From an uncultured bacterium (GTDB lineage: Bacteria; Bacillota; Clostridia; Oscillospirales; Acutalibacteraceae), in the NCBI GenBank assembly GCA_949283655.1, contig CASDTH010000045.1, positions 12,228-76,227 on the forward strand: 64,000 nt of DNA, written 5' to 3'. A model generated the notes under the pieces. The model had not been told where the DNA came from, searched no databases, and saw only the letters and a program-made list of their open reading frames with translations. Positions 9,608-63,848 of the stretch are shown piece by piece; the stretch's first letter is position 1, and every line of letters starts with the position of its first letter. Both the position numbers and the translations under genes were made by a program.

Positions 9608-9628
9608 AAGGGAGAACGGGAAACGCAC

Positions 9629-13520: not shown

Positions 13521-13521
13521 A

Positions 13522-13627: not shown

Positions 13628-13628
13628 C

Positions 13629-36809: not shown

Positions 36810-36891
36810 AACCGCAAAACACACCACCTTTCCTCGGCATGTAGAACTGCAGGAGCAGACGCAGTAGTGCTGCACCTGCTCCGCAATTTAT

Positions 36892-39408: not shown

Positions 39409-39424
39409 TGCTCCTTTATTTCGG

Positions 39425-40111
39425 TTAGCGTGCATATCTGACACCTCCCGAAACAACTTTCCCATCCTCAATGCGGATTGTCCGATCTGCCATCTGAGCG
39501 ATTTCCTCATTATGTGTAATCATAATTGTGGTCTGATAAAACTGCTTGCTGATAGACTGCATAAGCAAGATGACATCCATACTTGTTTTAGAGTCCAGAT
39601 TTCCGGTCGGCTCATCGGCAAGGATAATAGCGGGCTTGGTAGCCAATGCACGGGCAATCGCTACTCGCTGCTGCTGACCGCCGGACAGATTATTCGGCAT
39701 ATTTTTGAGCTTCTTTTCCAAACCGAGCGTATGAATGATCTGCCGGACAAACTCCGTATCGGCTTTCGCTCCGTCAATCTCAATAGGGTACACGATGTTT
39801 TCGTACACATTGAGGACAGGGAGCAGGTTGTAATTTTGAAAGACAAAGCCGATATTCCTGCGCCGGAAAATGGTTAATTCCTCGTCTTTCATTTTCAAAA
39901 GTTCTTTGCCACGGATCGTTACGCTGCCAGAAGTCGGATGATCCAAACCGCCGATCATGTTCAGCAATGTGGACTTGCCACTGCCGGAAGTACCGACCAC
40001 AGCGACAAATTCTCCCTCGTCCACGGAAATAGACACACCGTCCAAAGCGTGGACTTCATTTTCTCCGCTGCCATATATCTTTCGCAAATCCTTTGTTTCA
40101 AGTATTGCCAT
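39425..40111 (-). CDS. ABC transporter ATP-binding protein (BceA/MacB-NBD type)
   Basis: MAILETKDLRKIYG.., GTSGSGKST, LSGGQQQRVAIARAL, ILADEPTGNLD. ATG 40111 lies 8 nt after GGAGG. Confidence 0.9.
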   Translation of the reverse strand: MAILETKDLRKIYGSGENEVHALDGVSISVDEGEFVAVVGTSGSGKSTLLNMIGGLDHPTSGSVTIRGKELLKMKDEELTIFRRRNIGFVFQNYNLLPVLNVYENIVYPIEIDGAKADTEFVRQIIHTLGLEKKLKNMPNNLSGGQQQRVAIARALATKPAIILADEPTGNLDSKTSMDVILLMQSISKQFYQTTIMITHNEEIAQMADRTIRIEDGKVVSGGVRYAR

Positions 40112-40143
40112 AGCTAAAACCTCCAACTTTATTTTGTGATTTT

Positions 40144-40177
40144 AGTATAGCAGCCACTTCTTACAATCTCATTACAA
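40144..40177 (-). promoter_or_regulatory. Promoter with tandem TTGTAA repeats (candidate response-regulator box) for the ABC operon
   Basis: The minus strand reads CAGTTGTAATGAGATTGTAAGAAGTGGCTGCTATACT. TTGTAA occurs twice, 11 nt apart (plus-strand TTACAA at 40161-40166 and 40172-40177), overlapping the -35 position of an extended -10 TGCTATACT (40144-40149). Confidence 0.45.
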
Positions 40178-40265
40178 CTGCCCATTTAAAAAATCCTTCT
40201 GTTTTTTTGCACATATCTCTATAAAAGCTCTTCCCTCACAACCTCCACAACAGGCTACCGGCAAG

Positions 40266-40312
40266 CAAAAAGGGTGCAGGAGAAATACCCCTGCACCCTT
40301 TTCTGCTTTTTA
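40266..40312 (-). terminator. Terminator of the MFS gene (hairpin usable in both directions)
   Basis: AAGGGTGCAGG (40270-40280) pairs with CCTGCACCCTT (40290-40300), with T/A tracts on both sides. Confidence 0.75.
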
Positions 40313-40373
40313 CAAGCCCGCTCGCCGCTTTTGATAAAAACGAAACCTAAATGGGGCGGGCTATTTGCTCAAA

Positions 40374-44273: not shown

Positions 44274-44645
44274 GGGCGGCACCTCCTTCAAAATCGGTAA
44301 GGGAAGCTTTCCGGCCCCATTATACAGGAAAACGCTTTTTTTGAAAACCGGTTTTGACCGCAGCCCTTCTTACATGGTATTTATTCGTACCCACCCTTGA
44401 AAATTCAGGCGGCGTTTTTTAAAAAATTTTGGAATATGCCAAATCAGGCAATTCTTCTTTATAACAGCCTTGGCAGCCTGCCTTGCCGGCAGCAATAGGG
44501 CGGGCCTTTATTGCCGCCCGCTCACGGAGCGCTCCTCCTCTTTCGCCCCTCTTCTTTCTCACATCTATAGCGAATTTTTGCCGGTGAGTTTATAAGATAT
44601 GTTTAAAAATTTGCTGTTCCCCATAGAAAAGAGAGGCTCTTCCTA

Positions 44646-44675
44646 TTGAAACTCTCTTTCCCGCCATGCTATAAT
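44646..44675 (+). promoter_or_regulatory. Sigma-A type promoter of the isomerase/oxidoreductase operon
   Basis: TTGAAA (44646-44651), an 18-nt spacer ending in TGC, then TATAAT (44670-44675). This leaves a ~170-nt leader. Confidence 0.5.
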
Positions 44676-44845
44676 GAAAAACTGGAAGGGTGTTTTGACA
44701 TTGCTGCCACCTGATAAAATGCCCGATTGAGCAGGGAACAGATTTGCTTTGCCGCCATGGCGCATCAGGCAAATCTAATAATATAGCGGCGTAGAGAAGG
44801 TGAATATTTGCCCCATTCTGCGCCGCAGCAGGAGTGGATGACAAA

Positions 44846-45712
44846 ATGGCTGAATTTATTCTCTCCGCCTTTTCTGACGAGGCGGGCATCGCGCTGGAGG
44901 AACAAATTCGCGCGTGCCAGGCAAACGGAATCACGCACATGGAGCTGCGCGGCCTGCCGCAGGGCAATATCTCCACGCTCTCCACAGACGATGCCTGGGT
45001 GCTCAAGGCGAAGCTTGACTCCGAGGGGATGCAGGTTTCCGCAATCGGCTCGCCCTATGGCAAAATCAATATCACAGAGGATTTTGAGCCGCATTTTGAG
45101 GCCTTCAAAAATACGGTTGAGGTGGCAAAAATCCTGGATTGCCGGCTGATTCGGATGTTCAGCTTTTATTTTGACGAGGGGCAGAGCTACGAGGATTATC
45201 GCGACGAGGTGTTTGCCCGTGTGGGCAAAATGGCAGACTATGCGCTCGAACACGATGTGTTATGCTGCCATGAAAATGAAAAAGGCATTTATGGCGATAC
45301 GGCCGAGCGCTGCCTTGACCTCTACCGGCACTTTGAGGGGCGGCTCGCGGGCGTTTTTGACCCGGCGAACTTTATCCAGTGCGGCGTGCAACCGTTGGAA
45401 GCCTATGAAATGCTCGAGCCCTATATCCTTTATATGCACGTAAAGGATGCGAAAATGGCGGATGGCAGTGTGGTGCCTGTGGGTGCAGGCGATGGTCATG
45501 TTGCGGAGATTCTGCATCGTTTTCAAAAAATGGAGGGAAAACGTTTTCTCACCTTGGAACCGCATCTCAAGGTGTTTGAGGGCCTCTCCTCACTGGAAAA
45601 GGATAACGAAACCGCGCAGAAGATGGAGCAGTATACCTACCCCTCCAACCGTGCGGCGTTCGATGCGGCGGCACAGGCCATGCACCATCTGCTCAGCGGC
45701 TTGAACGCTTAA
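44846..45712 (+). CDS. Sugar phosphate isomerase/epimerase (xylose isomerase-like TIM barrel)
   Basis: ~288 aa with a typical AP-endonuclease-2/TIM pattern (ITHMELRG.., HENEKGIYGD, LEPHL). ATG 44846 (MAEFIL) is preferred. Confidence 0.8.
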   Translation: MAEFILSAFSDEAGIALEEQIRACQANGITHMELRGLPQGNISTLSTDDAWVLKAKLDSEGMQVSAIGSPYGKINITEDFEPHFEAFKNTVEVAKILDCRLIRMFSFYFDEGQSYEDYRDEVFARVGKMADYALEHDVLCCHENEKGIYGDTAERCLDLYRHFEGRLAGVFDPANFIQCGVQPLEAYEMLEPYILYMHVKDAKMADGSVVPVGAGDGHVAEILHRFQKMEGKRFLTLEPHLKVFEGLSSLEKDNETAQKMEQYTYPSNRAAFDAAAQAMHHLLSGLNA

Positions 45713-45725
45713 GGAACCGATCAAA

Positions 45726-46934
45726 ATGACTCAACAAAATTCAGAAAGGATGATCTGCTTGCAACAGGTACGCTTTGGCATCGTTGGCGTAGGCAATATG
45801 GGCTCAGGCCACCTCAAACATATCCTCAACGGCAATGTGCCGGAATTAAAGGTCACTGCCGTGGCGGATATTAACCCCGCCCGTCTGGAGGCGGCAAAAG
45901 AGACGGCGGCAAAAGCCGGCCAGCCGGTTGAAGCTTTCCCCACCGCGGCCGCGCTGTTTGACAGCGGGCTCTGCGACGCCGTTATCATCGCAACGCCACA
46001 CTATGATCACCCCCCGCTCGTCATCGAAGCGCTCCGGCACAACCTGCATGTGATCACGGAGAAGCCCGCAGGCGTTTACACAAAGCAGGTGCGCGAGATG
46101 AATGAGGCTGCGGCAAAGAGCGATAAAATTTTCGCTGTGATGTTTAACCAGCGCACAAACCACATCTACCGTAAGATGAAGGAGCTTGTTGCGAGCGGGA
46201 AATACGGCGAGATCCGCCGCACGAACTGGATCATCACCGATTGGTTCCGTTGCCAATCCTATTATAACTCCGGCGGCTGGCGCGCTACCTGGGCCGGCGA
46301 GGGCGGCGGCGTGCTGCTGAACCAGTGCCCCCACAACCTCGACCTGTGGCAGTGGATCTGCGGCATGCCGGTGAAAGTGCGCGCCTTCTGCAAGGAAGGA
46401 CATTTTCACGACATTGAGGTGGAGGATGACGTGACCGCTTATGTGGAATATGCAAACGGTGCAACCGGCGTTTTCATCTCCACTACAGGCGAATGCCCTG
46501 GCACCAACCGGTTTGAAATCGTGCTCGACCGGGCGACCATCTTATGTGAAAATGGAGAACTCTCCGTCTACGAGCTGGAGGACTCCCAACAGCATTTCAT
46601 TGACACCTGCCCCGAGGGCTTCGGCCGGGTTGACGGAAAATTCACCGACATTGAAACGGATGGCGAAAACCCGCAGCATGATGGTGTCCTGCGCGCCTTT
46701 GCCGCCGCAATCCTGCGCGGCGAGCCGCTCATCGCGCGGGGCGAGGAGGGCATTAATGGCCTGACGCTCTCCAACGCGATGTTCCTCTCCTCATGGCTCA
46801 ATCAAACAATTACGCTTCCGCTTGACGAGGATCTATTTTATGCCGAGCTGAAAAAACGGATTGATTCCTCCAAGATCAAAAAGGACACCGGTGAGGCTGT
46901 GGTATTCAACGTGGAGGGGACCTTTGGTTCTTGA
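45726..46934 (+). CDS. Gfo/Idh/MocA family oxidoreductase
   Basis: 402 aa. VRFGIVGVGNMGSGH Rossmann N-terminus and the EKP motif (VITEKPAG). Confidence 0.85.
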   Translation: MTQQNSERMICLQQVRFGIVGVGNMGSGHLKHILNGNVPELKVTAVADINPARLEAAKETAAKAGQPVEAFPTAAALFDSGLCDAVIIATPHYDHPPLVIEALRHNLHVITEKPAGVYTKQVREMNEAAAKSDKIFAVMFNQRTNHIYRKMKELVASGKYGEIRRTNWIITDWFRCQSYYNSGGWRATWAGEGGGVLLNQCPHNLDLWQWICGMPVKVRAFCKEGHFHDIEVEDDVTAYVEYANGATGVFISTTGECPGTNRFEIVLDRATILCENGELSVYELEDSQQHFIDTCPEGFGRVDGKFTDIETDGENPQHDGVLRAFAAAILRGEPLIARGEEGINGLTLSNAMFLSSWLNQTITLPLDEDLFYAELKKRIDSSKIKKDTGEAVVFNVEGTFGS

Positions 46935-46961
46935 CCGAATGGTGGAGGAGGGATCGTTTTC

Positions 46962-48005
46962 ATGCAAAAGGTTGCGGTAATCGGCTGCGGTAGCATTGCC
47001 AGAGTGCACGGCCTTGTGCTCGCGCAGCGGGAGGACCTCCACCTTGTTGCTGCCGCCGACTGCATACAGGAGCGTGCAGAGGATTTTTGCGAATGCTTTG
47101 GCGGCACGCCCTATCAGAGCTTTACACAGCTGCTGGATTGTGAGAAGCCGGACGTCATCCACCTGTGCACTCCACATTCCCTACACGTCCCGATGGCGGC
47201 CGAGGCGCTGCGGTGGGGCATCCATGTGCTCTCGGAAAAACCCGCCGCCATCACGCCCAGCCAGCTGAATGCGCTGCGGGAGGCAGTCAGGAGCTCCCCG
47301 GCGCAATACGGCGTGTGCTTTCAAAACCGGTTTAACCCCTGCGTTACCGCTGCGCGGGAGCGGCTGCTCTCCGGCAAGGCGGGCGCGCTGAAAGCCGTGC
47401 GTGCCTTTGTCACCTGGAGCCGCAGCGAGGCCTATTACACGGAAAGCGGCTGGAGAGGCACACTCTCCCAAGAGGGTGGAGGCGTGCTGACCAACCAGGC
47501 CATCCATACGCTCGATTTGATGCGCTACCTGGGCGGAGAGATTGCATCCATTGAAGGTCACATCGCAAACGATCATCTGCCCGGCGTAATCGAGGTGGAG
47601 GATACCGCCTGCGCCCTGCTGCGTTACCGCAGCGGCGCCACCGGCGTTTTTTACGCTACGACCGCCTACGCGGTGGATGCCCCTGTTCTGCTCGAGCTTG
47701 TGTGCGAGAAGGAGACGCTCCGGCTGGACGGCGCGGAGCTTTACCGCCGCTGCGGCAATCAGACTGAGCTTTTGACGGAGGGTTCCGGTAAAACCCCAGG
47801 CAAATCCTATTGGGGCTCTGGCCACGCGCAGTTGATCGATGCGTTTTACCGCGCGCTCACGCCGGAGAGCGAGCCTTTCCCCATCGGTATTGAGCAGGCC
47901 GCGCCCGTTAGCGAGCTGCTGTTTTCACTCTATGCGAAAAATGGGATTGATTATGAGAAGATACAGGTGGATGAGGCGGTGAATGGATCGAAGCGTTCAT
48001 TTTAA
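46962..48005 (+). CDS. Gfo/Idh/MocA family oxidoreductase
   Basis: 347 aa with KVAVIGCGSIARVH and VLSEKPAA. Confidence 0.85.
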   Translation: MQKVAVIGCGSIARVHGLVLAQREDLHLVAAADCIQERAEDFCECFGGTPYQSFTQLLDCEKPDVIHLCTPHSLHVPMAAEALRWGIHVLSEKPAAITPSQLNALREAVRSSPAQYGVCFQNRFNPCVTAARERLLSGKAGALKAVRAFVTWSRSEAYYTESGWRGTLSQEGGGVLTNQAIHTLDLMRYLGGEIASIEGHIANDHLPGVIEVEDTACALLRYRSGATGVFYATTAYAVDAPVLLELVCEKETLRLDGAELYRRCGNQTELLTEGSGKTPGKSYWGSGHAQLIDAFYRALTPESEPFPIGIEQAAPVSELLFSLYAKNGIDYEKIQVDEAVNGSKRSF

Positions 48006-48030
48006 GTTTGGATTTGCGGCGCAGCCAAAC

Positions 48031-48129
48031 GAGTCCGCCGCAGGTTTGTGGAGCCTGCCGCCGTTGGCCTATTGAAAGGCCTCAGCCTCAGCGATCAACT
48101 GAAGGCCCTGGGAGGTTTCTCCTGGAGAG
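48031..48129 (+). repeat. Repeat module A, copy 2 (5'-truncated)
   Basis: GAGCCTGCCGCCGTTGGCCTATTGAAAGG..GGTTTCTCCTGGAGAG aligns with 13550-13627. Confidence 0.75.
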
Positions 48130-48137
48130 ATGAGTAG

Positions 48138-48157
48138 GGAACGGTCTCGACCGTTCC
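48138..48157. repeat. 20-nt palindrome, module H (GGAACGGTC TC GACCGTTCC)
   Basis: Perfect 9-bp arms, preceded by TAG and followed by GACCCGG as at 53405. Confidence 0.8.
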
Positions 48158-48169
48158 GACCCGGTGAGA

Positions 48170-48552
48170 CCTGTAAGCAGTTCAGAGCCTCAAACATAAC
48201 GATAGGCCCAGGCGGCCTTAGATGCCACTCCCTGCGTGCGCGTGAGGGAATTTGCCCGCTATGCGGGCAAACGAACCTTCCCGCCTGTTTGAGCCGCCGT
48301 GAGGCGGTGAGTTCGGGAAGCGTTCGCCGAACGCGTTGTGGTGTGGCAAGTTTAAAAACCGCCGCCGCAGTGCCGTTCGCGGGGTCAAGGGGCGAAGCCC
48401 CCGGCTGGTTCTCTTCCTACCTTCTCTTACAGAAGTAAGAGAAGGTAGTCGCGTACAGCGAAACCAGGCACTCATTAAAAGCTAAAATAAAATCTCATGG
48501 CCGCACCACAAATGAAACATTGATGTTTGTTCCGCTCGGGCCGCAGGGGCCC
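48170..48552 (+). repeat. Repeat module B, copy 2 (core 48170-48378 plus complete tail)
   Basis: See copy 1. The tail carries hairpins GGGGCGAAGCCCC and 48417-48448, then CATGGCCGCACCACAAATGAAA and a terminal GGGCC..GGCCC hairpin. Confidence 0.85.
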
Positions 48553-48556
48553 AATT

Positions 48557-48723
48557 CAGACATCAGATATCAGACATGAGACGCCAGACGTGGAAGCTGG
48601 AAGCAATTGCCTCAGAGGCGGTGACAGAAAGTATTTTAGGGATAAAAATTTTCGCTTTTTATTGCGGAGGCAGGGCTTTATTGTAACCACATCTGAAATC
48701 TAACATCTGATATCTGGTATCTG
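48557..48723. repeat. S-K-S' palindromic element, copy 1
   Basis: Arms CAGACATCAGATATCAGACATGAGACGCCAGACGTGG (48557-48593) and CCACATCTGAAATCTAACATCTGATATCTGGTATCTG (48687-48723) flank a 72-nt core (48627-48698). That core is ~95% identical to 52205-52275. Confidence 0.8.
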
Positions 48724-48734
48724 TTTGGCGCTCG

Positions 48735-48870
48735 CTTGCCTGCAAGCAGGCAAGTCCCCTCACGAGCCCGCCGGAAGTAAGATGAGTTTGCCGCCGCTGG
48801 CCTACTGAAAGGCTCTGCCTCCGCGATAGACGGAAGGCCCCGAAAGGTTTCCGGCAATGCCTCGCCGGAG
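48735..48870 (+). repeat. Repeat module A, copy 3, with its own flanking hairpin
   Basis: CTTGCCTGC/GCAGGCAAG hairpin, then GTCCCCTCACGAGCCCGCCG..TTTGCCGCCGCTGGCCTACTGAAAGG..GGTTTCCGG. Confidence 0.75.
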
Positions 48871-48901
48871 GTTTGGTGATTCCGACAGGCCGGAACGGTC
48901 A

Positions 48902-48974
48902 AGTTAGACGGTAGATCGTAGAAATTAGATGGTAGATGAGAAAACCAAAAAGCCCTTGCCTCTGAGGCAGGAGC
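48902..48974 (+). repeat. Repeat module C, copy 1
   Basis: AGTTAGACGGTAGAT..GAAATTAGATGGTAGATGAGAAAACCAAAAAG plus a short hairpin and GCAGGAGC. It aligns with 53773-53844 and, with C/T changes, with 52131-52203. Confidence 0.75.
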
Positions 48975-49061
48975 TTCAATAAAATCAAGTCTAATATCCA
49001 ATTCCCACAGTCCAAAATCTAGCAATGAAATACTCCCAAAATAAAAAACGAAGGTGATGCT

Positions 49062-50123
49062 ATGCAAATGACAATGCGCTGGTTCGGCGCGCAGAAGGAT
49101 ACCGTTACGCTCGAGCAGATCCGGCAGGTGCCGGGGGTGACGGGCGTCGTCCCCGCCCTGCATGATTTGCCAGCGGGCGAAGCCTGGCCGCTGGACCGCA
49201 TTCTCGCCATGAAAGCGGAGATTGAGGCTGCCGGGCTCACGATGGAGTGCATTGAAAGCGTCAACGTCCATGAGGATATCAAGCTTGGCGCGCCCTCAGC
49301 CGGGCAATATATTGAAAACTATAAAACCTCTATCCGCAACCTGGCGAAAGCTGGTGTGAAGGTGATCTGCTATAACTTCATGCCCATCTTTGACTGGACG
49401 CGCACAGACCTTGCCATGCAGATGGGCGACGGCGCGACCTGCCTCTCCTACGACGGCGCGCAGATTGAGGGCAAAAGCCCGGAGGATATGTTCCGCGAGA
49501 TTGATGAAAACTCCAACGGATACGCCATGCCGGGCTGGGAAACCGAGCGGATGGGCGAAATTAAGGAGCTGTTTCAAAAATACAGGGGCGTGACGGATGA
49601 GGATCTCTGGCGCAACTTACAGCACTTTCTGGAGGAGATCATCCCTGTCTGCGAGGAATGCGACGTGAAGATGGCGATCCACCCGGATGACCCGCCATGG
49701 GGTATCTTTGGTCTGCCGCGCATCATCACGGATATCGCTGCGCTGCGCCGCTTTTTAAAGCTGGTGGACAGCCCCTATAACGGCCTGACCTTCTGCACAG
49801 GCTCGCTCGGCGCCAGCCTTCAAAACGATCTCCCCGCCATGATCCGCGAGGTCGGAAGCCGCATTTATTTTGCGCACCTGCGCAATGTGAAGGTGGAGGG
49901 CAACCGCTTTCATGAAACCTCCCACCTGTCGGCGGATGGGTCGCTCGATATGTATCAAATCGTGAAAGCGCTTCAGGAGGTAGGCTTTGACGGGTATATC
50001 CGCCCCGATCATGGGCGGATGCTCTGGGGTGAAGTGGCCCGGCCAGGCTACGGCCTCTATGACCGTGCGCTGGGCGCAGCATATTTGAACGGCCTGTGGG
50101 AGGCTGTTGCCAAAAGCAAATAA
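49062..50123 (+). CDS. uxuA: Mannonate dehydratase
   Basis: 353 aa. The MQMTMRWFG start is typical of UxuA, with a xylose-isomerase-like TIM barrel. Confidence 0.9.
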   Translation: MQMTMRWFGAQKDTVTLEQIRQVPGVTGVVPALHDLPAGEAWPLDRILAMKAEIEAAGLTMECIESVNVHEDIKLGAPSAGQYIENYKTSIRNLAKAGVKVICYNFMPIFDWTRTDLAMQMGDGATCLSYDGAQIEGKSPEDMFREIDENSNGYAMPGWETERMGEIKELFQKYRGVTDEDLWRNLQHFLEEIIPVCEECDVKMAIHPDDPPWGIFGLPRIITDIAALRRFLKLVDSPYNGLTFCTGSLGASLQNDLPAMIREVGSRIYFAHLRNVKVEGNRFHETSHLSADGSLDMYQIVKALQEVGFDGYIRPDHGRMLWGEVARPGYGLYDRALGAAYLNGLWEAVAKSK

Positions 50124-50151
50124 TCCATCATCAGGAAAGGGTGTATCAGCT

Positions 50152-51003
50152 ATGATTCAGCATGAAAATTTAAAGGGCCGCGTGGCAGTGGTGACCGGCG
50201 GCGGCGGGGTGCTCTGCAGCGCGTTTGCAAAGGATCTTGCAGCCTCCGGCGTAAAGGTTGCCGTGCTTGATATCCGGGAGGAGGCTGCGCAGGCCGTCGC
50301 CAATGAGATCAAGGCCGCCGGCGGCGAGGCAATCGGTATTGCGTGCGATGTGCTCAGTGCGGAAAGCCTGGAAAAGGCCCGCCAGGCCGTCAATGAAACG
50401 TTCGGCACCTGTGACATCCTACTCAACGGAGCAGGCGGCAACTCCCCGCTCGGCACCACAACAAAGGAGACGCTTGAGCCGGAGGATTTGCAGAAAAAGG
50501 CGGAGGGCGTGAAGACGTTTTTTGATCTTGATCCCAAGGGCATCGAATTTGTCTTTAACCTCAACTTCCTCGGCACGCTGCTGACAACGCAGGCCTTTGC
50601 CAAAGATATGGTCGGCAAGGAAAATGCCTGCATCGTCAATGTATCCTCCATGAACGCCTACCGGCCTCTGACCAAAATCCCGGCCTATTCAGCGGCAAAG
50701 GCGGCGGTTTCAAACTTTACGCAATTTATGGCCGTGCACTTTGCAGATGTGGGCATCCGCGTCAACGCGATTGCGCCCGGATTTTTCTCCACCAATCAGA
50801 ATAAAACGCTGCTTTATCATGAGGATGGCTCCCTCACACCGCGCAGTGAAAAAATCCTCTCCCACACGCCGCTGCGGCGTTTCGGGGTGCCGGCGGATTT
50901 GACGGGCACGCTGCTCTACCTCTGCGATGAGGAATATACAGGCTTCGTCACCGGCATTATCGTGCCGGTGGATGGCGGCTTCTCCGCCTATTCCGGTGTA
51001 TAA
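50152..51003 (+). CDS. SDR family oxidoreductase (by context a mannonate/fructuronate oxidoreductase candidate)
   Basis: VAVVTGGGGVLCSAF cofactor motif and a YSAAK catalytic motif. ATG 50152 is preferred. The functional assignment rests on context only. Confidence 0.8.
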   Translation: MIQHENLKGRVAVVTGGGGVLCSAFAKDLAASGVKVAVLDIREEAAQAVANEIKAAGGEAIGIACDVLSAESLEKARQAVNETFGTCDILLNGAGGNSPLGTTTKETLEPEDLQKKAEGVKTFFDLDPKGIEFVFNLNFLGTLLTTQAFAKDMVGKENACIVNVSSMNAYRPLTKIPAYSAAKAAVSNFTQFMAVHFADVGIRVNAIAPGFFSTNQNKTLLYHEDGSLTPRSEKILSHTPLRRFGVPADLTGTLLYLCDEEYTGFVTGIIVPVDGGFSAYSGV

Positions 51004-51032
51004 AAAATTGGACGGAAAGGGAGAATGACAAA

Positions 51033-52130
51033 ATGGATTTAAACCTTCGCGCCAAGCAGGAGTGCCTGTTTGACGAAATTTCGCTTGGCGAAGTGATGCT
51101 CCGGCTCGACCCCGGTGATGCGCGCATCAAAACAGCGCGCTCCTTCCGCGCATGGGAGGGCGGCGGCGAATACAATGTAGCGCGCGGGCTGCGGCGCTGC
51201 TTTGGCCTGCACACGGCGGTGGTCACCGCGCTGGCCGACAATGAAATCGGCCGCCTGATTGAGGATTTTATTTTGCAGGGCGGCGTGGATGCCTCCCTCA
51301 TTGAATGGAAGCCCTATGATGGCATTGGCCGCAGCGTACGCAACGGCTTGAATTTTACGGAGCGCGGCTTTGGCATCCGGGGCGCAGTGGGCGTATCGGA
51401 CCGTGGACACACCGCCGCCTCCCAGCTCAAGCCCGGCGATATTGACTGGGATTTCATCTTCGGCCGCCTCGGCGCACGCTGGCTGCACACGGGCGGTATT
51501 TTCGCCGCCCTGTCTGAAACGACCGCGCAGGTTGTGCTGGAGGCTGTGAAGGCCGCGAAAAAGTGGGGCACCGCCGTCTCCTATGATCTCAACTACCGCC
51601 CCTCCCTCTGGAAGGATATCGGCGGGCAGGCAAAAGCGCAGGAGGTAAACCGTGAGCTTGCCAAATACGTGGATGTGATGATCGGCAATGAAGAGGATTT
51701 CACCGCCTGCCTCGGCTTTGAGGTGCCCGGCAACGATGCGAGCCTCAAAACACTCAGCATTGAGGGCTACGGGAAAATGATTGAGCAGGCCGTGAAGGTC
51801 TACCCGAATTTCAAGGTAGTAGCTACCACTCTGCGCGCGGTGAAGACTGCCACGGTCAACGACTGGAGTGCTATCCTGTGGGCGGATGGTCAGCTGTATC
51901 GCGGCCTTGACCTGCCTGCTCTCGAAATTTACGATCGTGTTGGCGGCGGCGACAGCTTCGCTTCCGGTCTCATCTACGGCCTGATGACCACGGGTGACGC
52001 GCAGCAGGCGGTGAATTTTGGCGTTGCGCATGGCGCGCTTGCCATGACTACGCCCGGCGACACCTCCATGGCCAGCCTCAAAGAGGTGGAAAACGTGATG
52101 AAGGGCGCCGGCGCCAGGGTGCAAAGGTGA
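51033..52130 (+). CDS. kdgK: PfkB family sugar kinase (2-dehydro-3-deoxygluconokinase-like)
   Basis: 365 aa with the C-terminal VGGGDSFASGLIYG motif. It lies between uxuA and eda. Confidence 0.8.
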   Translation: MDLNLRAKQECLFDEISLGEVMLRLDPGDARIKTARSFRAWEGGGEYNVARGLRRCFGLHTAVVTALADNEIGRLIEDFILQGGVDASLIEWKPYDGIGRSVRNGLNFTERGFGIRGAVGVSDRGHTAASQLKPGDIDWDFIFGRLGARWLHTGGIFAALSETTAQVVLEAVKAAKKWGTAVSYDLNYRPSLWKDIGGQAKAQEVNRELAKYVDVMIGNEEDFTACLGFEVPGNDASLKTLSIEGYGKMIEQAVKVYPNFKVVATTLRAVKTATVNDWSAILWADGQLYRGLDLPALEIYDRVGGGDSFASGLIYGLMTTGDAQQAVNFGVAHGALAMTTPGDTSMASLKEVENVMKGAGARVQR

Positions 52131-52320
52131 AGTTAGATGTCAGATTCCGGACATGAGACGTCAGACGTGAAAACCAAAAGGCTTTCGCCACAAAGGCGGG
52201 AGCGGAAAGTATTTTAGGGATAAAAACTTCGCTTTTTATTGCGGAGGCGGGGTTTTATTGTAACCACATCTGAAAGCGGACATCCAATTTCCAGCATCGA
52301 ATATCTAAATTCGCATCTGC
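52131..52320. repeat. S-K-S' palindromic element, copy 2
   Basis: It starts at the nucleotide after the kdgK stop. AGTTAGATGTCAGATTCCGGACATGAGACGTCAGACGTG, core 52205-52275, then CCACATCTGAAAGCGGACATCC.. Confidence 0.8.
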
Positions 52321-52365: not shown

Positions 52366-53283
52366 ATGAAAAAATTACAGCTTTCGAGGCTTTCGGTTTG
52401 CTACTTCTGCTGCGCGGTGACGCTTTCCTTCCTCCAGCAGTTTGTATTTTCTTTTCTGTCCAGTTTCATCTCCTCCCGCAGTGCGGTTTTGGCGCAGATG
52501 GCAGTCCTCTTGCTGACAGCTATATTGGGGGCGGCTGCGATTGGCTCCTTTTTCCGATTTGCGCGCAAGGATGGGCAGCGCAAGGGGCTGGCAGTTGCGG
52601 CGTTTTTTCTTTTGTTCTTGGCAATCATCAATGAAATTGCTTTCAAAGGGCTATTTCAACCAAATGGTTCCGTCGCTTATAAAACGGCGTTTTATGCAAT
52701 AATCACCTTATTCAGCATTCAGACGCCTTTGACACTGATGGCCATACAATATGCGGAAGTCATTTCCAAAAAGAAATTAGTTGTGGCCACAGCGCTGCTT
52801 TATGTGTTAAGCCTGTTATGCAGCATCGTCATGCAGGGTTACAGCTTTTGGCTGATTGAATGCGTATCCCTATCCCAATGGGTACCCTCTGCGCAATACA
52901 CAATCAATGGCATCGGCTGGCTCGTTGTCCGCCTACTATCGTTTGCCGTGGCGATATTACAAGCGGTTTCCGCCGTGCTTTTCCTGCGGTTGATCCGTGC
53001 GGTGGAGCAGCCCTCGCCGGCCGGATGGGCGGGGCAACCGCAGCAAGCCGCGGGCATCGCCGGGAGCGATGCACCTTTGCGCCCGGGCGTTTGCCCGAAC
53101 TGCGGGCGGGATAACGGGCCCGAGGCCAATTTCTGCGCGGTGTGCGCTATCCCTTTAAAGCGCCCGGAGCCCCAAAGCGGCCTGGAGGGCTCCGGCTCCG
53201 GCCGCCGCTGCCCCTCCTGCGGCGTGCCGCTGGAGGCCGGCGAACACTATTGCCCGCTTTGCGGGAGCAAGGCGGAGGAATAG
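52366..53283 (+). CDS. Polytopic membrane protein with a C-terminal double zinc-ribbon
   Basis: 305 aa. About 6 hydrophobic segments, then CPNCGRDNGPEANFCAVCA and CPSCGVPLEAGEHYCPLCG. GAGGGG RBS. Confidence 0.6.
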   Translation: MKKLQLSRLSVCYFCCAVTLSFLQQFVFSFLSSFISSRSAVLAQMAVLLLTAILGAAAIGSFFRFARKDGQRKGLAVAAFFLLFLAIINEIAFKGLFQPNGSVAYKTAFYAIITLFSIQTPLTLMAIQYAEVISKKKLVVATALLYVLSLLCSIVMQGYSFWLIECVSLSQWVPSAQYTINGIGWLVVRLLSFAVAILQAVSAVLFLRLIRAVEQPSPAGWAGQPQQAAGIAGSDAPLRPGVCPNCGRDNGPEANFCAVCAIPLKRPEPQSGLEGSGSGRRCPSCGVPLEAGEHYCPLCGSKAEE

Positions 53284-53330
53284 ATATCAGATGTCAGACA
53301 TGAGACATCAGACGAGAAAGCCGGGAACGG
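53281..53330 (+). repeat. S module (YAGAY tract) starting at the stop codon of the preceding gene
   Basis: TAGATATCAGATGTCAGACATGAGACATCAGACGAGAAAG. Confidence 0.7.
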
Positions 53331-53404
53331 TTGCCTCCAAGGAGATTGCAGGTGGCTTTCCATCCGGCCGGGTCAAGACCCGACCCTACAATCAACTTTC
53401 GTAG

Positions 53405-53424
53405 GGAACGGCCTTGACCGTTCC
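53405..53424. repeat. 20-nt palindrome, module H (GGAACGGCC TT GACCGTTCC)
   Basis: One mismatch in 9-bp arms. A partial GGGTCAAGACCCGACC lies just upstream at 53368-53385. Confidence 0.75.
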
Positions 53425-53436
53425 GACCCGGCGTGA

Positions 53437-53648
53437 CCTGTAAGCAGTTCAGAGGCGCAAGCGGAAGGATAGGCCCAGGCGGCATTTGCTGACACTGACT
53501 GCGTGCACGTGAGGGGACTTTTTAGCCCGAAGGGCAAAAAGCGAACCTTCCCGCCTGTTTGAAGCCGCGTGAGCGGCTGAGTTCGGGAAGCGTTTGCCGA
53601 ACGCGTCGTGGTGTGGCAAATTGATAAACCGCCGCCGCAGTGCCGTTC
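53437..53648 (+). repeat. Repeat module B, copy 3 (core only)
   Basis: Same conserved blocks as copies 1 and 2. Hairpin 1 is replaced by CTTTTTAGCCC/GGGCAAAAAG, and the tail is replaced by an unrelated hairpin CATCCTTT..AAAGGATG. Confidence 0.85.
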
Positions 53649-53746
53649 CTCCACGTCCTTTTGCATCCTTTACCGACGAGGGAAAAGGATGGGCCCCGCG
53701 GCCTGAGCGGAAAATAGAAAATATAGCTTAGTCAATAGAACACCCC

Positions 53747-53766
53747 GGAACGGTCAAGACCGTTCC
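53747..53766. repeat. 20-nt palindrome, module H (GGAACGGTC AA GACCGTTCC)
   Basis: Perfect 9-bp arms. Confidence 0.8.
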
Positions 53767-53772
53767 CTATAA

Positions 53773-53844
53773 AGTTAGACGGTAAATTTTAGAAATTAGA
53801 TATTAGATGAGAAAATCAAAAAGTTCTGCCCCAGAAGCAGGAGC
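53773..53844 (+). repeat. Repeat module C, copy 2
   Basis: AGTTAGACGGTAAATTTTAGAAATTAGATATTAGATGAGAAAATCAAAAAG..GCAGGAGC. Confidence 0.75.
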
Positions 53845-53907
53845 CTAAAGGAATGAGAGTTAACCTTTCATTTTTGTATAAAAATTAAAAAAAGGACTGA
53901 TTGGACA

Positions 53908-54558
53908 ATGGACAAAGAAACTGTTTTAACCCGTATTCAGGAGGCTGGCATCGTCGCCGTCGTGCGGGCGGAGACGAGCGAGCAGGCCATCCGTATCGCG
54001 GATGCATGCATGGAGGGCGGCGTAGCGGCCATCGAGTTGACATTTACCGTCCCGCAGGCTGACCGCGTGATCGCCGACCTCGCCAAGCGTTACGCAGATG
54101 GCGGCATCATCCTTGGTGCGGGCACGGTGATGGATGCGGCCACTGCGCGCATCGCGATTCTCAACGGCGCGCAATATGTCGTCTCCCCCTATTTTGATCC
54201 GGAAACCGTCAAGCTCTGCAACCACTACCGCATTCCAATCATGCCCGGTGTAATGACGGTGCGCGAAGCGGTGATGGCGATGGAGGCCGGCGCAGATATC
54301 CTCAAGGTTTTCCCCGGCGATGTGTTTGGCCCGAAAATCATCAAGGCGATCCGCGGCCCGATCCCCTACGCAAAAATGATGCCCACCGGCGGCGTGGATG
54401 TGAACAATGTGGCAGATTGGATCAAGGCGGGTGCGGTCGCCGTCGGCGCGGGTAGCTCGCTGACTGCGGGCGCCAAGACAGGCGATTACCAGAAGATCAC
54501 GGAAACCGGCCGCCTCTTTGTGGAAAACATTCGCCAGGCGCGTGCGGAGATGAAATAA
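53908..54558 (+). CDS. eda: KDPG/KHG aldolase
   Basis: 216 aa with typical Eda pattern (GIVAVVRA.., ELTFTVP, LKVFPG, PTGGV). Confidence 0.9.
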   Translation: MDKETVLTRIQEAGIVAVVRAETSEQAIRIADACMEGGVAAIELTFTVPQADRVIADLAKRYADGGIILGAGTVMDAATARIAILNGAQYVVSPYFDPETVKLCNHYRIPIMPGVMTVREAVMAMEAGADILKVFPGDVFGPKIIKAIRGPIPYAKMMPTGGVDVNNVADWIKAGAVAVGAGSSLTAGAKTGDYQKITETGRLFVENIRQARAEMK

Positions 54559-54670: not shown

Positions 54671-55636
54671 TTAATGGAATAAACGCGTCTTTTTTAAAAG
54701 GCGGTGATAGCTCGGGGACCCCGGCCCGGCGGCTGTAACAGCGGCCAACTGCCCGCTTTCGATCATCGCCTCAATGCGCATGGCAAGCCAGCCGTCGCCA
54801 ATTCCAAGGTGATATTTGCCTAAAATTTTCCCAATCAATTTTGCCTCATGGAAGGGATCGCTCTGCGCAGCGATCTCGCGAAGGAGAAAGGGATCATAAA
54901 ACGACGCTGGTACGCTTTGCAGACAGCCGCTTATGACGGCGCGCAGAGGAGCGTTTTCCCTTTGCAGCTCCCTCCACTGCGAGGCGGCGGCAGAAATAAA
55001 GGCGGGCTCCGCCCTCTTTTGCAGGCTGATATAAGGCTGCCACTCGCCCGGCGCGATCTCGCCCCATCCAGCGCTATGTGTCACCACTGTATTCTCACGC
55101 AGCTCCCGGACTGGAAGCTCTACCAAATCAATCGCCGGAGCGCCTCCCCATTGCGACACTTGCGCCATCAACCAGAATAGGCCGCACATCTCATCGGCCT
55201 GTTCGCTATACCAGATGCGGAGGGATTCCCTCTCCGACAAGCGCTGCCGGAGAAGCGCCAGGCTCTCGCTCGCCCGCTGCACAATCGCTTTAGCCGCTGC
55301 TGCGCCCTCACCACTGGGATAACTGCCAAACAATTGCTCCAGCGTTTTGATGCGCTCTGCGCCCATGGCATTGCCCGAAATATCCCCAACGCTGTGCGCA
55401 AGCGGAAAATAAAAGATATCTGCGACTTTGCCCCCCATCGGAACGGCCTGCTCCCATTTCAGGCGCTCTTCTTCCTCCAACCTCCTCTGAATTGCCTTTC
55501 TTTCTGCTTTTGAAGATTCTCGATCTACCTCTGACAAAATTATGCCTATGGAGGCAGGCTTGTATTTGCCGTTGCCATAGCTTTGCGCCTGCTTTAAGCT
55601 GCCTGCGGCGCTCTCGCTGAACACAACCTCTAACAT
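54671..55636 (-). CDS. DUF1835/DUF3658-like protein
   Basis: ATG 55636 (MLEVVFSESAAGSLKQA) follows AAGGAG. The N-terminal motif resembles DUF1835 as I remember the family. Function unknown. Confidence 0.55.
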   Translation of the reverse strand: MLEVVFSESAAGSLKQAQSYGNGKYKPASIGIILSEVDRESSKAERKAIQRRLEEEERLKWEQAVPMGGKVADIFYFPLAHSVGDISGNAMGAERIKTLEQLFGSYPSGEGAAAAKAIVQRASESLALLRQRLSERESLRIWYSEQADEMCGLFWLMAQVSQWGGAPAIDLVELPVRELRENTVVTHSAGWGEIAPGEWQPYISLQKRAEPAFISAAASQWRELQRENAPLRAVISGCLQSVPASFYDPFLLREIAAQSDPFHEAKLIGKILGKYHLGIGDGWLAMRIEAMIESGQLAAVTAAGPGSPSYHRLLKKTRLFH

Positions 55637-55701
55637 CGCCCACACTCCTTTTCTAAAGAAAAAATACCGACGGCTTTTCCAGCCGACGATATTTTTTCTC
55701 G

Positions 55702-57261
55702 TCAAAATAAATTTCCTTCGCCGCTTGTTGAATCCTCCTGCCCCTGCGCGGCAGTGCTTTCTTCCCCTTCGCCTGCGGGAATGGAGGATTCCTCCTCAGA
55801 AGGAGCCTCTGTGCCGGGCTCCGTTGTAGAAGGATCGGAAACGGAGGGATGCATCCACCACGGCCATGTAGGCTCTTCCGCAATGGAGACCGGCTCTGTC
55901 TCCTGCTGATTTGAGGAGACCGGCTCGCTCACAGATGGCGCCGTTGTGCCGCCTCCGGAGGCGCTGCCCGATCCGCCTGAATAGCTGAGATCCAAATCAA
56001 AGGGAGAAACATGATCTTCGTCCGGGATATTGCTGTTGCCATACAGCGCCATTTGCAGCTCCCTCGCGGCTGCCTGATAATCAACGATGATAAATGAAGT
56101 CCCGTTAATATACTGACCTCTTCGATATTGTTCGCTCGGAGCTGTCATCGTGTTGATCGGATAATTCATCCAACCTTGCAAAATTGCCTGCGTACCGAGG
56201 GAGAGAATCTCGGTTTTAGGGATATTTGTGTTAACATATGGCAGCATTTTATTCACCATGCTGTTCAATTGGCCAAGAGAAGCATTTTTCGTCTGCGCAA
56301 TCAGAGCAGAAATCACCTGACGCTGACGGCGTGTACGGCTGATGTCGCTATCCGCATCGCTTTTGCGAATCCGGCTGAAAACGAGCGCCTCATCTCCGTT
56401 GAGCAGCACATTTTCTCCAACTGGGAAGTTTTTGTGGCTGCTCGTGCGGCGGATATAATCCGACTCATATTGCTGCACATCCACTCGTATACCGCCCAAT
56501 GCATCAATCGCCTTGGAAAAGTTTTCAAAATTGATAGAGACGTAATAGTCAATTTCAATTTTAAAATTATTCTCCAGTGTTTCAATCAGCAGATCTGCGC
56601 CGCCCCATTGATAGGCCGCATTGATTTTGGTGTAGCGATCTTGCCCATTATAGTCGATATAAGAATAACTATCCCGGAAGAAGGAAGCCAGCGTGATCTG
56701 ATCTGTTTTCCGGTTGATGGAGGCAAGGATCATAGAATCCGAGCGACCGTCATCCTGCCCGATCAAAAGGACATTGATTACATTCCGGCTCGCATATTTT
56801 TCTCCACCGTTGGTCGCCCAGGTTTTGAGCAGATCTTTCAGGGAGTCCGCATCCTTGATCCCATCCATTTCCGCAAACTCCTGCTCATCATAAATCGGAT
56901 CCTCCACGCCGCCCTGCGGCCCATCAGGATTTTCTGTGCCGATGAGGTTGAGCATATTGTTGACATAGAGGAAGACAATTACCACGGCTGCAACGATCAA
57001 CGCGGCCAAAACTCCCAGGAAAATCTTTAAGTTTCGTTTTTTATTTTTCGTCCAAAACGGAACGAAGCGATCCCTCCAAAAAGAGGCCTTCGAATTGCCG
57101 TCTTCCTGTGGCTGCATCCAATCCGGCTTATTTTGCTGAGGCGTCTTTTCCCGCGCCGGCTCTTTTGCGTCAAACTGTTTGCCGTCCTTCACGCGCGTGC
57201 CACACTCCTTTATTGAAACTGGTCCCCTGTAAAAAAGGTGCTTTTTATTATATCGAATCAA
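55702..57261 (-). CDS. LytR-CpsA-Psr (LCP) family protein with a cytoplasmic tail, one TM and a low-complexity C-terminus
   Basis: LCP core NVLLIGQDDGRSDSMILASINRKTDQITLASFFRDSY. Start uncertain: track TTG 57261, or GTG 57192 12 nt after AAGGAG. Confidence 0.85.
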   Translation of the reverse strand: MIRYNKKHLFYRGPVSIKECGTRVKDGKQFDAKEPAREKTPQQNKPDWMQPQEDGNSKASFWRDRFVPFWTKNKKRNLKIFLGVLAALIVAAVVIVFLYVNNMLNLIGTENPDGPQGGVEDPIYDEQEFAEMDGIKDADSLKDLLKTWATNGGEKYASRNVINVLLIGQDDGRSDSMILASINRKTDQITLASFFRDSYSYIDYNGQDRYTKINAAYQWGGADLLIETLENNFKIEIDYYVSINFENFSKAIDALGGIRVDVQQYESDYIRRTSSHKNFPVGENVLLNGDEALVFSRIRKSDADSDISRTRRQRQVISALIAQTKNASLGQLNSMVNKMLPYVNTNIPKTEILSLGTQAILQGWMNYPINTMTAPSEQYRRGQYINGTSFIIVDYQAAARELQMALYGNSNIPDEDHVSPFDLDLSYSGGSGSASGGGTTAPSVSEPVSSNQQETEPVSIAEEPTWPWWMHPSVSDPSTTEPGTEAPSEEESSIPAGEGEESTAAQGQEDSTSGEGNLF

Positions 57262-57397
57262 GTGGAAGGATGCAAGAGAAAATCAAAAAACGCATAAATT
57301 CCCTTCTCCCCATATCCTCTTCCACTCTATCACAAAGATATATTACGAAATCGCGAGCTGAGATAGCAGGACGCTTCGAAGAAGGAGCAGCTGCAGC

Positions 57398-57427
57398 ATG
57401 AAAACCCTCTGGCCTTCTGCCCGGCCA
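57398..57427 (-). terminator. Possible terminator of gyrA
   Basis: CTGGCC (57408-57413) pairs with GGCCAG (57422-57427), with a short U-run on the minus strand. Confidence 0.4.
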
Positions 57428-57453
57428 GGTGCTTTATTGTTTCCCGCTCAAAT

Positions 57454-59973: not shown

Positions 59974-60113
59974 GTGAGTCCATCCTTTATCATAGAGCCG
60001 CTGCCGCCGCATTTTGTTGCAGCAGAGAAAAAGCAGACTCTAATTTCTGAAAAACCCGGCATTGCTGATGCCTCTGCCGCGCTGAACCGGCAGACCATCA
60101 TCCAAATAGACCT

Positions 60114-62174
<2,061 letters not shown>

Positions 62175-62474
62175 TTATATGTTGGCTAATTTATCAATGA
62201 ATTCCGTCCGCTTCAGCAAGGTTGCGGAAGAAATTTGCGAAATATAGATCACCCTTCCGCTTGGCCGCTCCGGGCTCGCGCAAACAATAAACGACTTTGG
62301 AAGTTCCATGGAAACATTGATTACGTCGCCCGCTTTTTCAGCATCCGCCAGATAGTTTCGTGTGGCCTTTGATACAGTCGTTGTGTCCAGGTCAAAAATT
62401 CCGATGATTTCCTCCAATGTTACAACGGTATCCTGCCCCAAATGCAGATACAAGCAAATAGCCCCTTTTATCAA
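62175..62474 (-). CDS. remB: DUF370 / RemB-like small protein
   Basis: 99-aa ORF between recF and gyrB (the yaaB/remB position in Firmicutes). The LHLGQDTVVTLEEIIGIFDLD pattern fits. The start may be an internal TTG. Confidence 0.7.
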   Translation of the reverse strand: MIKGAICLYLHLGQDTVVTLEEIIGIFDLDTTTVSKATRNYLADAEKAGDVINVSMELPKSFIVCASPERPSGRVIYISQISSATLLKRTEFIDKLANI

Positions 62475-62477
62475 AAT

Positions 62478-63826: not shown

Positions 63827-63848
63827 AGAATCAAACGCTCCGTTCTGA

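Follow-up and report, generated by a model that had tools for sequence, protein, structure and literature searches.

Palindromes carrying a 5' GTAG tag are the defining form of repetitive extragenic palindromic (REP) elements thought to be moved by RayT transposases (PMC3733652). REP populations in Firmicutes are not described in two REP/RAYT papers (PMC3733652, PMC5581495), one of which notes Group 1 RAYTs in Clostridia. The present analysis concerns the spacer between a Gfo/Idh/MocA oxidoreductase gene and uxuA at 48006-49061 of a 64,000-nt stretch of clostridial DNA (the window, over whose whole length all positions are numbered), which an earlier sequence-only reading had described as a gene-free chain of eight repeat modules comparable to bacterial interspersed mosaic elements (BIMEs). 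The spacer is probably a BIME-like accumulation of old, non-autonomous palindromic repeats in an Oscillospiraceae lineage comprising "Candidatus Fimivicinus" and its close relatives. The eight modules reduce to three element types, namely REP hairpins, a unit termed U, and heptad-array elements; they are repeated, palindromic, and intergenic, orthologous loci differ by whole modules, and U and the heptad elements are restricted to the lineage.

Among 185,579 species representatives, the closest relative of the window was the chicken-gut metagenome-assembled genome (MAG) "Candidatus Fimivicinus intestinavium" of the Oscillospiraceae, with orthologous genes at 87-96% identity, which agrees with the clostridial host assumed previously. 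Retrieved stretches are given L-numbers, including the MAG loci L007, L015, L018, and L019, the last of which holds the orthologous uxuA spacer.

Three element types in the uxuA spacer

The palindrome H (GTAG-GGAACGGTC-TC-GACCGTTCC) is a GTAG-type REP hairpin, of the described class tied to RayT transposases, and the BIME comparison was apt because the spacer holds this tagged hairpin. Both H and P2, a second type present elsewhere in the window, have 9-bp stems and a 2-nt loop, and three stem pairs differ between the two on both sides with pairing preserved. The 5' GTAG was present in every window and MAG copy except one, which reads ATAG (53767-53770, opposite strand). Five full copies and one truncated copy of H/P2 were identified in the 64-kb window, all intergenic, along with about 14 copies in ~150 kb of MAG loci that had been chosen for their content of B3, a part of module B. 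P2 and H stand head to head at 53366-53424 in the layout of REP doublets forming hairpins (REPINs), a P2(-)/H(+) doublet recurs at 1344-1410 of L007, and H(+) at 53401 and H(-) at 53770 bracket the modules B5-B3-Y53. In the spacer, H with its flanks (~48130-48170) forms a 42-nt insertion between A and B5 that is missing from 12 other copies. These structural features would place H among the REPs, for which a RayT gene in the same genome would be decisive.

Modules A and B and the tail of B belong to one unit of ~390 nt, U, which is arranged in inverted pairs. When reverse-complemented, 13232-13627 aligned end to end with 48167-48552 (77% identity over 351 nt) with a score of 281 compared to 6.7 +/- 3.9 in shuffled sequence, and from this full-length foldback alignment the basic unit is the hairpin-rich U and the full element an inverted pair of U. 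Judged by alignment, A corresponds to B5, the first part of U, in inverted and diverged form, and the module X found outside the spacer is an inverted B3. B (48170-48443) matched 13628-13901 (84%) and 53401-53648, and the tail (48381-48517) was found inverted at 13254-13389 with 82-97% identity. The near-complete foldback at 13232-13901, with a right arm (13628-13901) composed of B5, B3, and a truncated tail, sits between convergent genes coding for a Wzy_C-type protein (11464-13182, +) and a Clp ATPase (13922-16423, -). At 53 kb, the stretch 53435-53770 together with the H at 53401 constitutes a unit bracketed by inverted REPs that is 95-99% identical to L015. A module map of 23 MAG loci gave the cyclic order inverted tail, X, hairpin plus A, B5, B3, and then Y53 or tail, with REPs at the module junctions.

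The B3 core occurs in the window at 48269-48380, 13727-13836, and 53539-53648 and was 93-100% identical among paralogues (median 97%), compared to 82-84% for A and B5 and 73-82% for the inverted counterpart X; part of this uniformity is ascertainment, the MAG loci having been fetched with a B3 20-mer. A separate observation concerns the tail, whose copy at 48515-48528 holds a perfect palindrome (AAACAT-TG-ATGTTT) that the other tail copies and the MAG ortholog lack and which may resemble a KdgR-type operator.

The modules S-K-S' and C form a single class of 120-170-nt elements as judged from their common plan, in which a run of five 7-nt repeats (CAGAYNN or TAGAYNN) is followed by a core that includes a small hairpin (GCCTCAGAGGC or TGCCTCTGAGGCA) and then by five repeats in inverted orientation. 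The arms of S-K-S' (48557-48593 and 48687-48723, 37 nt) are 76% complementary, in the manner of the terminal inverted repeats of MITEs (miniature inverted-repeat transposable elements). S-K-S' (48557-48723) matched 52135-52298, with a further copy in L015, and C (48901-48952) was 88% identical to 53772-53823, its stretch 48957-49019 matching L019 by BLAST on the opposite strand (85.7%). Period-7 arrays were delimited by Tandem Repeats Finder at 48556-48582, 48691-48723, 48905-48938, 53282-53313, and 53789-53808, and the heptad-array pattern occurred three times in the window compared to none in 20 shuffles. In six copies an inverted REP directly precedes a C-type array (...CCCTAC-AAAG-TTAGAC...). 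No common flanking target-site duplication was visible in the heptad copies compared, the ends of which are blurred by the repeat arrays, and no transposase was found next to the copies by RayT-directed tblastn and an HUH...Y regular expression. Viral contigs gave 116 matches to the heptad pattern, which resemble ordinary tandem repeats of 7-mers (consecutive matches 35 nt apart) and were treated as uninformative.

The previously described modules were all real at about the positions assigned to them, and their recurrence in different orders at 13.2-13.9, 52.1-52.3, and 53.3-53.9 kb was borne out at 63-97% identity. The chain itself stood insofar as the named modules recur and gave way in their number, A being inverted, diverged B5 and C being of the S-K-S' kind. 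An AT-rich stretch of ~85 nt before uxuA, listed as an item of its own in the sequence-only reading, proved to be the degenerate right heptad array of C as far as ~49023.

The arrays themselves invite a different interpretation, as sites for a ring-shaped RNA-binding regulator of sugar-acid genes of the HutP/TRAP type. HutP sites are spaced as UAG-N4, which matches the array period of (U/C/G)AG every 7 nt, five times over; such a period is unusual for a binding site on double-stranded DNA, and arrays lie upstream of uxuA, a zinc-ribbon gene, and an aldolase gene. This function is nonetheless very improbable, as the arrays form inverted pairs around a core like terminal inverted repeats and also occur 3' of genes in either orientation, matching arrays were confined to this lineage among the sequences examined (plus one dissimilar array in L125), and no candidate binding protein was identified.

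The hexuronate operon runs in the order uxuA, short-chain dehydrogenase, PfkB kinase, zinc-ribbon membrane protein (52366-53283), and 2-keto-3-deoxy-6-phosphogluconate (KDPG) aldolase (53908-54558). The DZR zinc-ribbon gene thus positioned splits the kinase-aldolase pair and has an S-type array on either side (52135 and 53282), the two in direct orientation; the gene may have arrived, or be mobile, as a unit.

Table 1. Positions of the spacer modules, their relatives in the window, flanking genes, and RayT-like genes in retrieved stretches.
Feature	Position	Strand	Description
P2, second REP type	13205-13238	+	GTAG...GGTCGGGTC-TT-GACCCGACC; inverted repeat pairs P2 with 53363-53393
Near-complete inverted-pair (foldback) element	13232-13901		Left arm 13232-13627 (inverted tail, X, hairpin plus A); right arm 13628-13901
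Gfo/Idh/MocA oxidoreductase gene	46962-48005	+	Left neighbor of spacer
A, left-arm stump (inner ~100 nt)	48029-48129	+	Matches 48762-48851 and 13530-13619; remainder of arm missing here
H, GTAG-tagged REP hairpin	48134-48157	+	GTAG 48134-48137; 9-bp stems 48138-48146 and 48149-48157; loop TC
U, complete right arm	48167-48552	+	B5 48167-48268, B3 48269-48380, tail 48381-48552; chain of GC-rich hairpins
S-K-S'	48557-48723		Arrays 48557-48593 (5x CAGAYNN) and 48687-48723; core K with hairpin GCCTCAGAGGC 48594-48686
Hairpin plus A, second left-arm fragment	48738-48851	+	75% identical to 13506-13619
Half-H, truncated inverted REP fused to C	48890-48903	-	Deletion derivative of REP(-)-AAAG-TTAGAC junction intact at 53747-53784
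C-type element	48901-49023		Left array 48905-48938 (TAGAYNN x5); core hairpin TGCCTCTGAGGCA 48957-48969; degenerate inverted array 48989-49023
uxuA ribosome-binding site and start codon	49050-49056 and 49062-49064	+	GAAGGTG and ATG; from ~49025 on, unique sequence conserved with MAG ortholog
uxuA	49062-50123	+	Pfam 1e-157, full length; right neighbor of spacer
Second S-K-S' element	52130-52320		Between PfkB kinase gene and zinc-ribbon membrane protein gene
S-type half element (left array and core)	53282-53351	+	Begins at stop codon of 52366-53283; full version at orthologous L015 site
REP doublet	53366-53424		P2 inverted 53366-53389 (ends CTAC), 11-nt linker, H direct 53401-53424
B5-B3, Y53 linker, inverted H	53435-53770	+	B5-B3 53435-53648; Y53 53649-53745; H 53747-53770, tag ATAG
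C-type element	53772-53880		Upstream of KDPG aldolase gene 53908-54558
RayT-like gene	L041 6233-6796	-	REP palindrome GTAGGGAACGGTCGCGACCGTTCC inside coding sequence
RayT-like gene	L101 2683-3258	+	REP palindrome GTAGGGAACGGTCGCGACCGTTCC inside coding sequence
RayT-like gene	L107 2936-3538	+	REP palindrome GTAGGGAACGGTCGCGACCGTTCC inside coding sequence
RayT-like gene	L120 107-784	-	REP palindrome GTAGGGAACGGTCGCGACCGTTCC inside coding sequence
RayT-like gene fetched with flanks	L153 10001-10555		Palindrome inside coding sequence
RayT-like gene fetched with flanks	L157 10001-10579		Palindrome inside coding sequence

Coding potential, RNA structure, and control of uxuA

The spacer is non-coding and without a credible gene, as had been proposed. 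Its open reading frames (ORFs) at 48130-48438 (+), 48218-48475 (-), and 48678-49271 (-) had no Pfam match, and the single relative of the 102-aa ORF among 5.8 billion proteins was itself predicted from a further copy of the repeats, where a contig ends. In an alignment of 12 repeat copies no frame remained open throughout, and no tRNA was detected in the spacer. A decayed gene or an assembly artefact is accordingly hardly credible as the source of the sequence, even though it is possible to draw ORFs of 102 and 197 aa and misassembly is frequent at repeats: the ORFs lack a family match, have one spurious relative, and show no conserved frame, and the assembly was confirmed by an independent ENA contig (48681-52293, 99.6% identity) and by collinearity of 48006-48552 with the MAG ortholog. 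Two other long gaps in the window without ORFs of at least 100 aa, 16424-17488 (1,066 nt) and 39511-40373 (864 nt), contain no repeat modules.

Similarity searches for described equivalents of the spacer gave no match among plasmids and phages and no blastn match in E. coli (5,426 genomes, 20,395 records). No Rfam 15 family matched the whole window at its gathering score, so that no covariance model assigns the spacer to a known structured RNA family, and E-value searches of the spacer, of the full unit in L018, and of 13150-14000 returned only noise (E>0.3). The supposition that no equivalent had been described thus stood for these collections and failed for H, which belongs to the described GTAG REP class and is widespread beyond the lineage.

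The units fold 3-10 standard deviations (SD) below shuffled sequences, both strands do so about alike, and only 1 of 71 predicted pairs in A-B carries a double change. Equal folding of the two strands, few compensatory changes, and the inverted-pair organization indicate palindromic DNA rather than an RNA specific to one strand. A structured non-coding RNA in multiple copies, encoded by U (especially B3) or by the heptad elements, such as a transposon guide or scaffold RNA, could draw on the same folding energies, on the nested helices with one GUGA-capped hairpin, on the nearly invariant B3 core, and on copies that keep their hairpins despite different sequences. We regard it as improbable, since symmetric folding and the one double change speak against an RNA, no Rfam family matched, and inverted pairing of units is a feature of DNA. 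No Y1-transposase/RayT gene was adjacent, a search in which TnpB, IscB, IS110, and reverse transcriptase were not systematically covered. A group II intron without an ORF and a transposon guide RNA were considered and found unsupported, Rfam being empty.

The sequence-only reading had also suggested a role in the regulation of uxuA. Several features would fit an exapted cis-acting region of the uxu operon, in which hairpins terminate or attenuate read-through from the Gfo/Idh/MocA genes or protect the 3' end of the upstream mRNA and C supplies a promoter or operator for uxuA. The spacer separates co-directional genes and holds numerous GC-rich hairpins; the window and the MAG each have a heptad element immediately 5' of uxuA, and such elements also precede the zinc-ribbon and aldolase genes; and B3 was co-oriented with neighboring genes in ~15 of 20 cases by our reading. 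A promoter scan further located a sigma-70-like match inside C (TTGCCT-18-TAAAAT, 48956-48985), 77 nt upstream of the uxuA ATG. The hexamers of this match are not kept in the C copy at 53.8 kb, and it was rejected as a promoter and taken as chance.

Other evidence weakens the suggestion more generally. The + strand of the spacer contains no site resembling an intrinsic terminator, and these elements are also sited 3' of genes, in gaps separating convergent genes, and next to genes of unrelated function (Clp ATPase, Wzy_C-type, an aspartate kinase of the ACT-domain amino-acid kinase type, and KDPG aldolase). In L019 the distal half of the spacer is rearranged and its uxuA-proximal element is inverted and of a different subtype, although uxuA is 96% identical. 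There is thus no sign that the spacer is a dedicated uxuA regulator, and exaptation as a cis-acting region is unlikely. Effects of the hairpins on termination, transcript stability, or read-through would be plausible by analogy with REPs. Under the interpretation as accumulated repeats, any influence on uxuA would be a by-product and not the reason for the sequence, with hairpins that stall exonucleases or polymerase and an accidental promoter as candidate causes.

Genomic copies, orthologous loci, and turnover

The B3 20-mer GAACCTTCCCGCCTGTTTGA gave 24 exact matches, all in one of the 185,579 species representatives, the "Ca. Fimivicinus intestinavium" MAG, and none in viral contigs; the modules are consequently far from confined to the window. 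For about 10 of the 24 matches, the retrieved stretch ends no more than ~110 nt away. Independent short-read contigs with identical window proteins stop at 13.3-13.5, 48.7-48.8, 53.40, and 53.74 kb, and a further cluster (Y53, H, inverted tail) was found ~9 kb past the right end of the window. From the dispersed matches and the contig breaks at the clusters, the repeats are spread over the whole genome in this lineage and mislead assemblers. A literature search under "Fimivicinus" returned nothing on repeats by title or abstract.

Orthologous loci combine persistence with module-scale change. In L019, A-H-U is kept at 86.7%, near the level of the upstream genes (88-91%), and unique sequence resumes before uxuA (49025-49150, 92.9%); the distal half between them lacks S-K-S' and carries another hairpin, followed by a stump of X-A, a REP of the P2 type, and an oppositely oriented heptad element. 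The 53-kb cluster differs from L015 by whole modules, yet B5-B3-Y53-H-C is 95-99% identical. Over 44626-52132, identity to L019 rises from 88-91% in the three upstream genes to 94-96% in the uxuA, dehydrogenase, and kinase genes exactly across the repeat cluster, the pattern that would be expected of a recombination breakpoint.

These comparisons bear on how the repeats spread. Homologous or illegitimate recombination, gene conversion, and local duplication might account for most of the spread and rearrangement, with no dedicated transposase for U or the heptad elements. Neither the window nor the MAG loci nor the flanking contigs yielded a transposase, orthologous differences are replacements and not clean insertions, half-H is a deletion between short repeats, the B3 core appears homogenized within the genome, and the MAG identity steps up across the spacer as described. 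Recombination alone, however, does not seed at least 24 dispersed intergenic sites, and REPs at unit ends, inverted pairs, and inverted termini are typical of transposed elements. As the main cause it is about as unlikely as a cis-acting role.

An accumulation of formerly mobile palindromic repeats has its own difficulties, which weigh against it as follows. The copies are old, with paralogues ~80-90% identical and no closer than orthologues, from which most insertions are older than the divergence of the two organisms, and the window and the MAG have the A-H-U and B5-B3-Y53-H-C insertions in common. Present-day mobility is thus only putative. REPINs have been described as persisting vertically over long times in this manner (bioRxiv 10.1101/2021.07.10.451892). 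Neither target-site duplications nor clean empty sites were resolved in the loci compared, and the orthologous differences could stem from recombination instead of transposition. The uniformity of B3 hints at selection or gene conversion acting on one arm, and its co-orientation with neighboring genes could reflect a transcript-level role or a replication-strand bias. The mobilizing gene that the sequence-only reading had proposed to look for was likewise not encountered: an HUH...Y motif regular expression and tblastn with three RayT-like proteins detected no transposase in the window, the flanking contigs, or the ~150 kb of MAG loci, which together make ~10% of a genome visible. A search for a clostridial RayT through the TT-loop-variant RayT P0016 found close relatives only in PVC bacteria and Flavobacterium.

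Two regions of the window stand apart from the repeats. The right end (54671-64000; L150-L152) adjoins the replication origin region, with the order dnaA, dnaN, S4-domain gene, recF (62478-63572, -), gyrB, gyrA, LytR_cpsA_psr gene, and KDPG aldolase in the neighboring contigs, and the uxu genes (+) run opposite to the dnaA-gyrA block. A low-GC island at 35119-39510 (41-44% compared to ~55%) codes for a histidine kinase, a response regulator, and an FtsX-type permease, all on the - strand, and looks like an acquired resistance or sensing module.

The H palindrome, RayT-like genes, and described repeat systems

Only H is widespread among the spacer modules. Scanning metagenomes with the pattern GTAGGGAACGGTCNNGACCGTTCC, GTAG included, placed the H 24-mer in at least 120 stretches on contigs of 25-64% GC, and IMG/VR added 71 contigs with an H-type REP, one of them in a region of phage tail genes. 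No other spacer module was present on any of the 120 metagenome contigs listed, and the remaining modules were found in one species of the 185,579 and were absent from the other collections that were searched. Clustering of the ORFs beside the 120 metagenome matches identified no shared neighbor gene, and a literature search for the palindrome string returned unrelated papers only, judged by titles. The human gut contig L083, assigned to Gemmiger/Subdoligranulum by its serine hydroxymethyltransferase cluster, has six H-type matches at four sites in 8.4 kb (155-8200), two symmetric palindromes matching both strands, between the housekeeping genes dnaK, a GntR-family gene, hisB, glyA, and tal. 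L040, L057, L080, L084, and L129 were noted alongside L083, and REP populations seem common in gut Oscillospiraceae. The predicted phage contig L217 carries three H-type REPs (9560-9660) where a short gap separates the tape-measure gene from the tail gene that follows; a tblastn RayT match there consisted of translated REPs only and no transposase.

The same palindrome was found inside RayT-like genes from unrelated phyla (38-58% GC), where it encodes VGNGRDRS directly after the HUH motif. Four contigs have it within or beside such a gene. It occurs twice in L107, which has an upstream copy as well, and in partial triplication in L101; L153 and L157 have it on both flanks of the gene too, and compensated stem variants stand beside the RayT gene in L157. 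In a Smithella MAG (58% GC) and a Bacteroidota MAG (38% GC) it lies upstream of, inside, and downstream of the RayT-like gene, which is the REPtron layout. The RayT-like family scored 55.6 bits with NCBIfam REP_Tyr_transpos, below the cut-off of 80, also matches Pfam Y1_Tnp, and has members labeled "REP element-mobilizing transposase RayT" by JGI. It numbers at least 5,436 members at E <= 1e-10, and the exact VGNGRDRS was present in 61 of the 120 top members. The palindrome-bearing genes come from at least two named phyla (38-58% GC), and protein homologues with VGNGRDRS are named from several more. On this evidence H would be the cognate hairpin type of a RayT clade, and its use by a RayT in the present lineage is inferred; that the palindrome is identical at the DNA level even in a genome of 38% GC hints that the hairpin itself is under selection. 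This occurrence of one palindrome in RayT genes and in extragenic REPs across phyla is the most unusual part of the analysis, outside the spacer itself.

A mechanism for the accumulation of repeats can be outlined from these associations. The REPs (H here, P2 elsewhere) with their 5' GTAG would be recognized in single-stranded DNA by RayT-type Y1 (HUH) transposases and mobilized, now or formerly, by RayT acting on the hairpins exposed there. U, as B5-B3-tail or B5-B3-Y53-REP, forms inverted pairs and alternating chains with REPs at the ends, and the heptad elements are often joined on one side to an inverted REP. These larger units may have spread as REP-bounded cargo or through recombination between repeats.

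A more specific proposal, which we put forward tentatively and consider rather doubtful, is an Oscillospiraceae REP-RayT system in which the REP hairpin serves as a terminal handle for long cargo (U and the heptad elements), giving kilobase-scale, vertically persisting analogues of BIMEs. Its REP would be a near-universal palindrome, GTAGGGAACGGTC-NN-GACCGTTCC, found on the flanks of RayT genes and within the sequence coding for them. If true, this would imply a conserved code of RayT-hairpin recognition and possibly self-targeting of the RayT gene. The palindrome common to extragenic REPs of gut Oscillospiraceae and to RayT genes of distant phyla may in any case provide an experimental handle, as a substrate-enzyme pair for hairpin recognition. 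For genome analysis, the mosaics explain short-read contig breaks in these organisms, and such spacers are best treated as repeats to be masked, not as places to look for regulators or small genes.

Compared with the Streptococcus pneumoniae BOX elements (boxA-boxB(n)-boxC), the spacer is likewise modular and intergenic, with variable module number and high hairpin potential. It differs in host and probably in sequence, and BOX is not known to contain a GTAG REP or heptad arrays. Correia, RUP, and ERIC, which are MITE or foldback elements, share with the present repeats a short, non-coding, intergenic, and multi-copy character with inverted termini, and the arms of the U pair (~390 nt, 77% identical) are those of a foldback. 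Unlike in MITEs, the small elements end in 7-nt repeat arrays instead of a single transposase-binding inverted repeat; in addition, no target-site duplication or parent insertion sequence was identified, and the U pair is an inverted duplication of a whole unit.

The enterobacterial BIMEs are closer in being intergenic mosaics of two REP types in alternating orientation with other motifs in variable order, sited at 3' ends and between operon genes. The likeness is architectural only: there was no blastn match in the 5,426 E. coli genomes, by which the spacer is not composed of the palindromic units (PU/REP types Y and Z) and defined linkers of an E. coli BIME. The non-REP motifs here are structured units of 100-400 nt in place of linkers of 10-30 nt, from which the clusters reach 0.6-1 kb.

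The REP/REPIN-RayT systems are matched by the 9-bp-stem palindromes H and P2 with their diagnostic 5' GTAG, extragenic and in multiple copies in the loci examined, by the head-to-head doublet at 53366-53424, and by inverted pairs that bracket other DNA; an identical palindrome flanking RayT-like genes in the Smithella and Bacteroidota MAGs recalls the REPtron. In contrast to classical REP/RayT systems, the host is a Gram-positive anaerobe and no RayT has been found so far in the visible sequence of the lineage, and in contrast to classical species-specific REP families, the sequence of H is shared across phyla and embedded in RayT coding sequences. REP and BIME work is mainly Proteobacterial in the papers cited, and a clostridial gut lineage, in which two further repeat classes are stacked with GTAG REPs into 0.6-1-kb mosaics, would extend the phenomenon to Gram-positive anaerobes.

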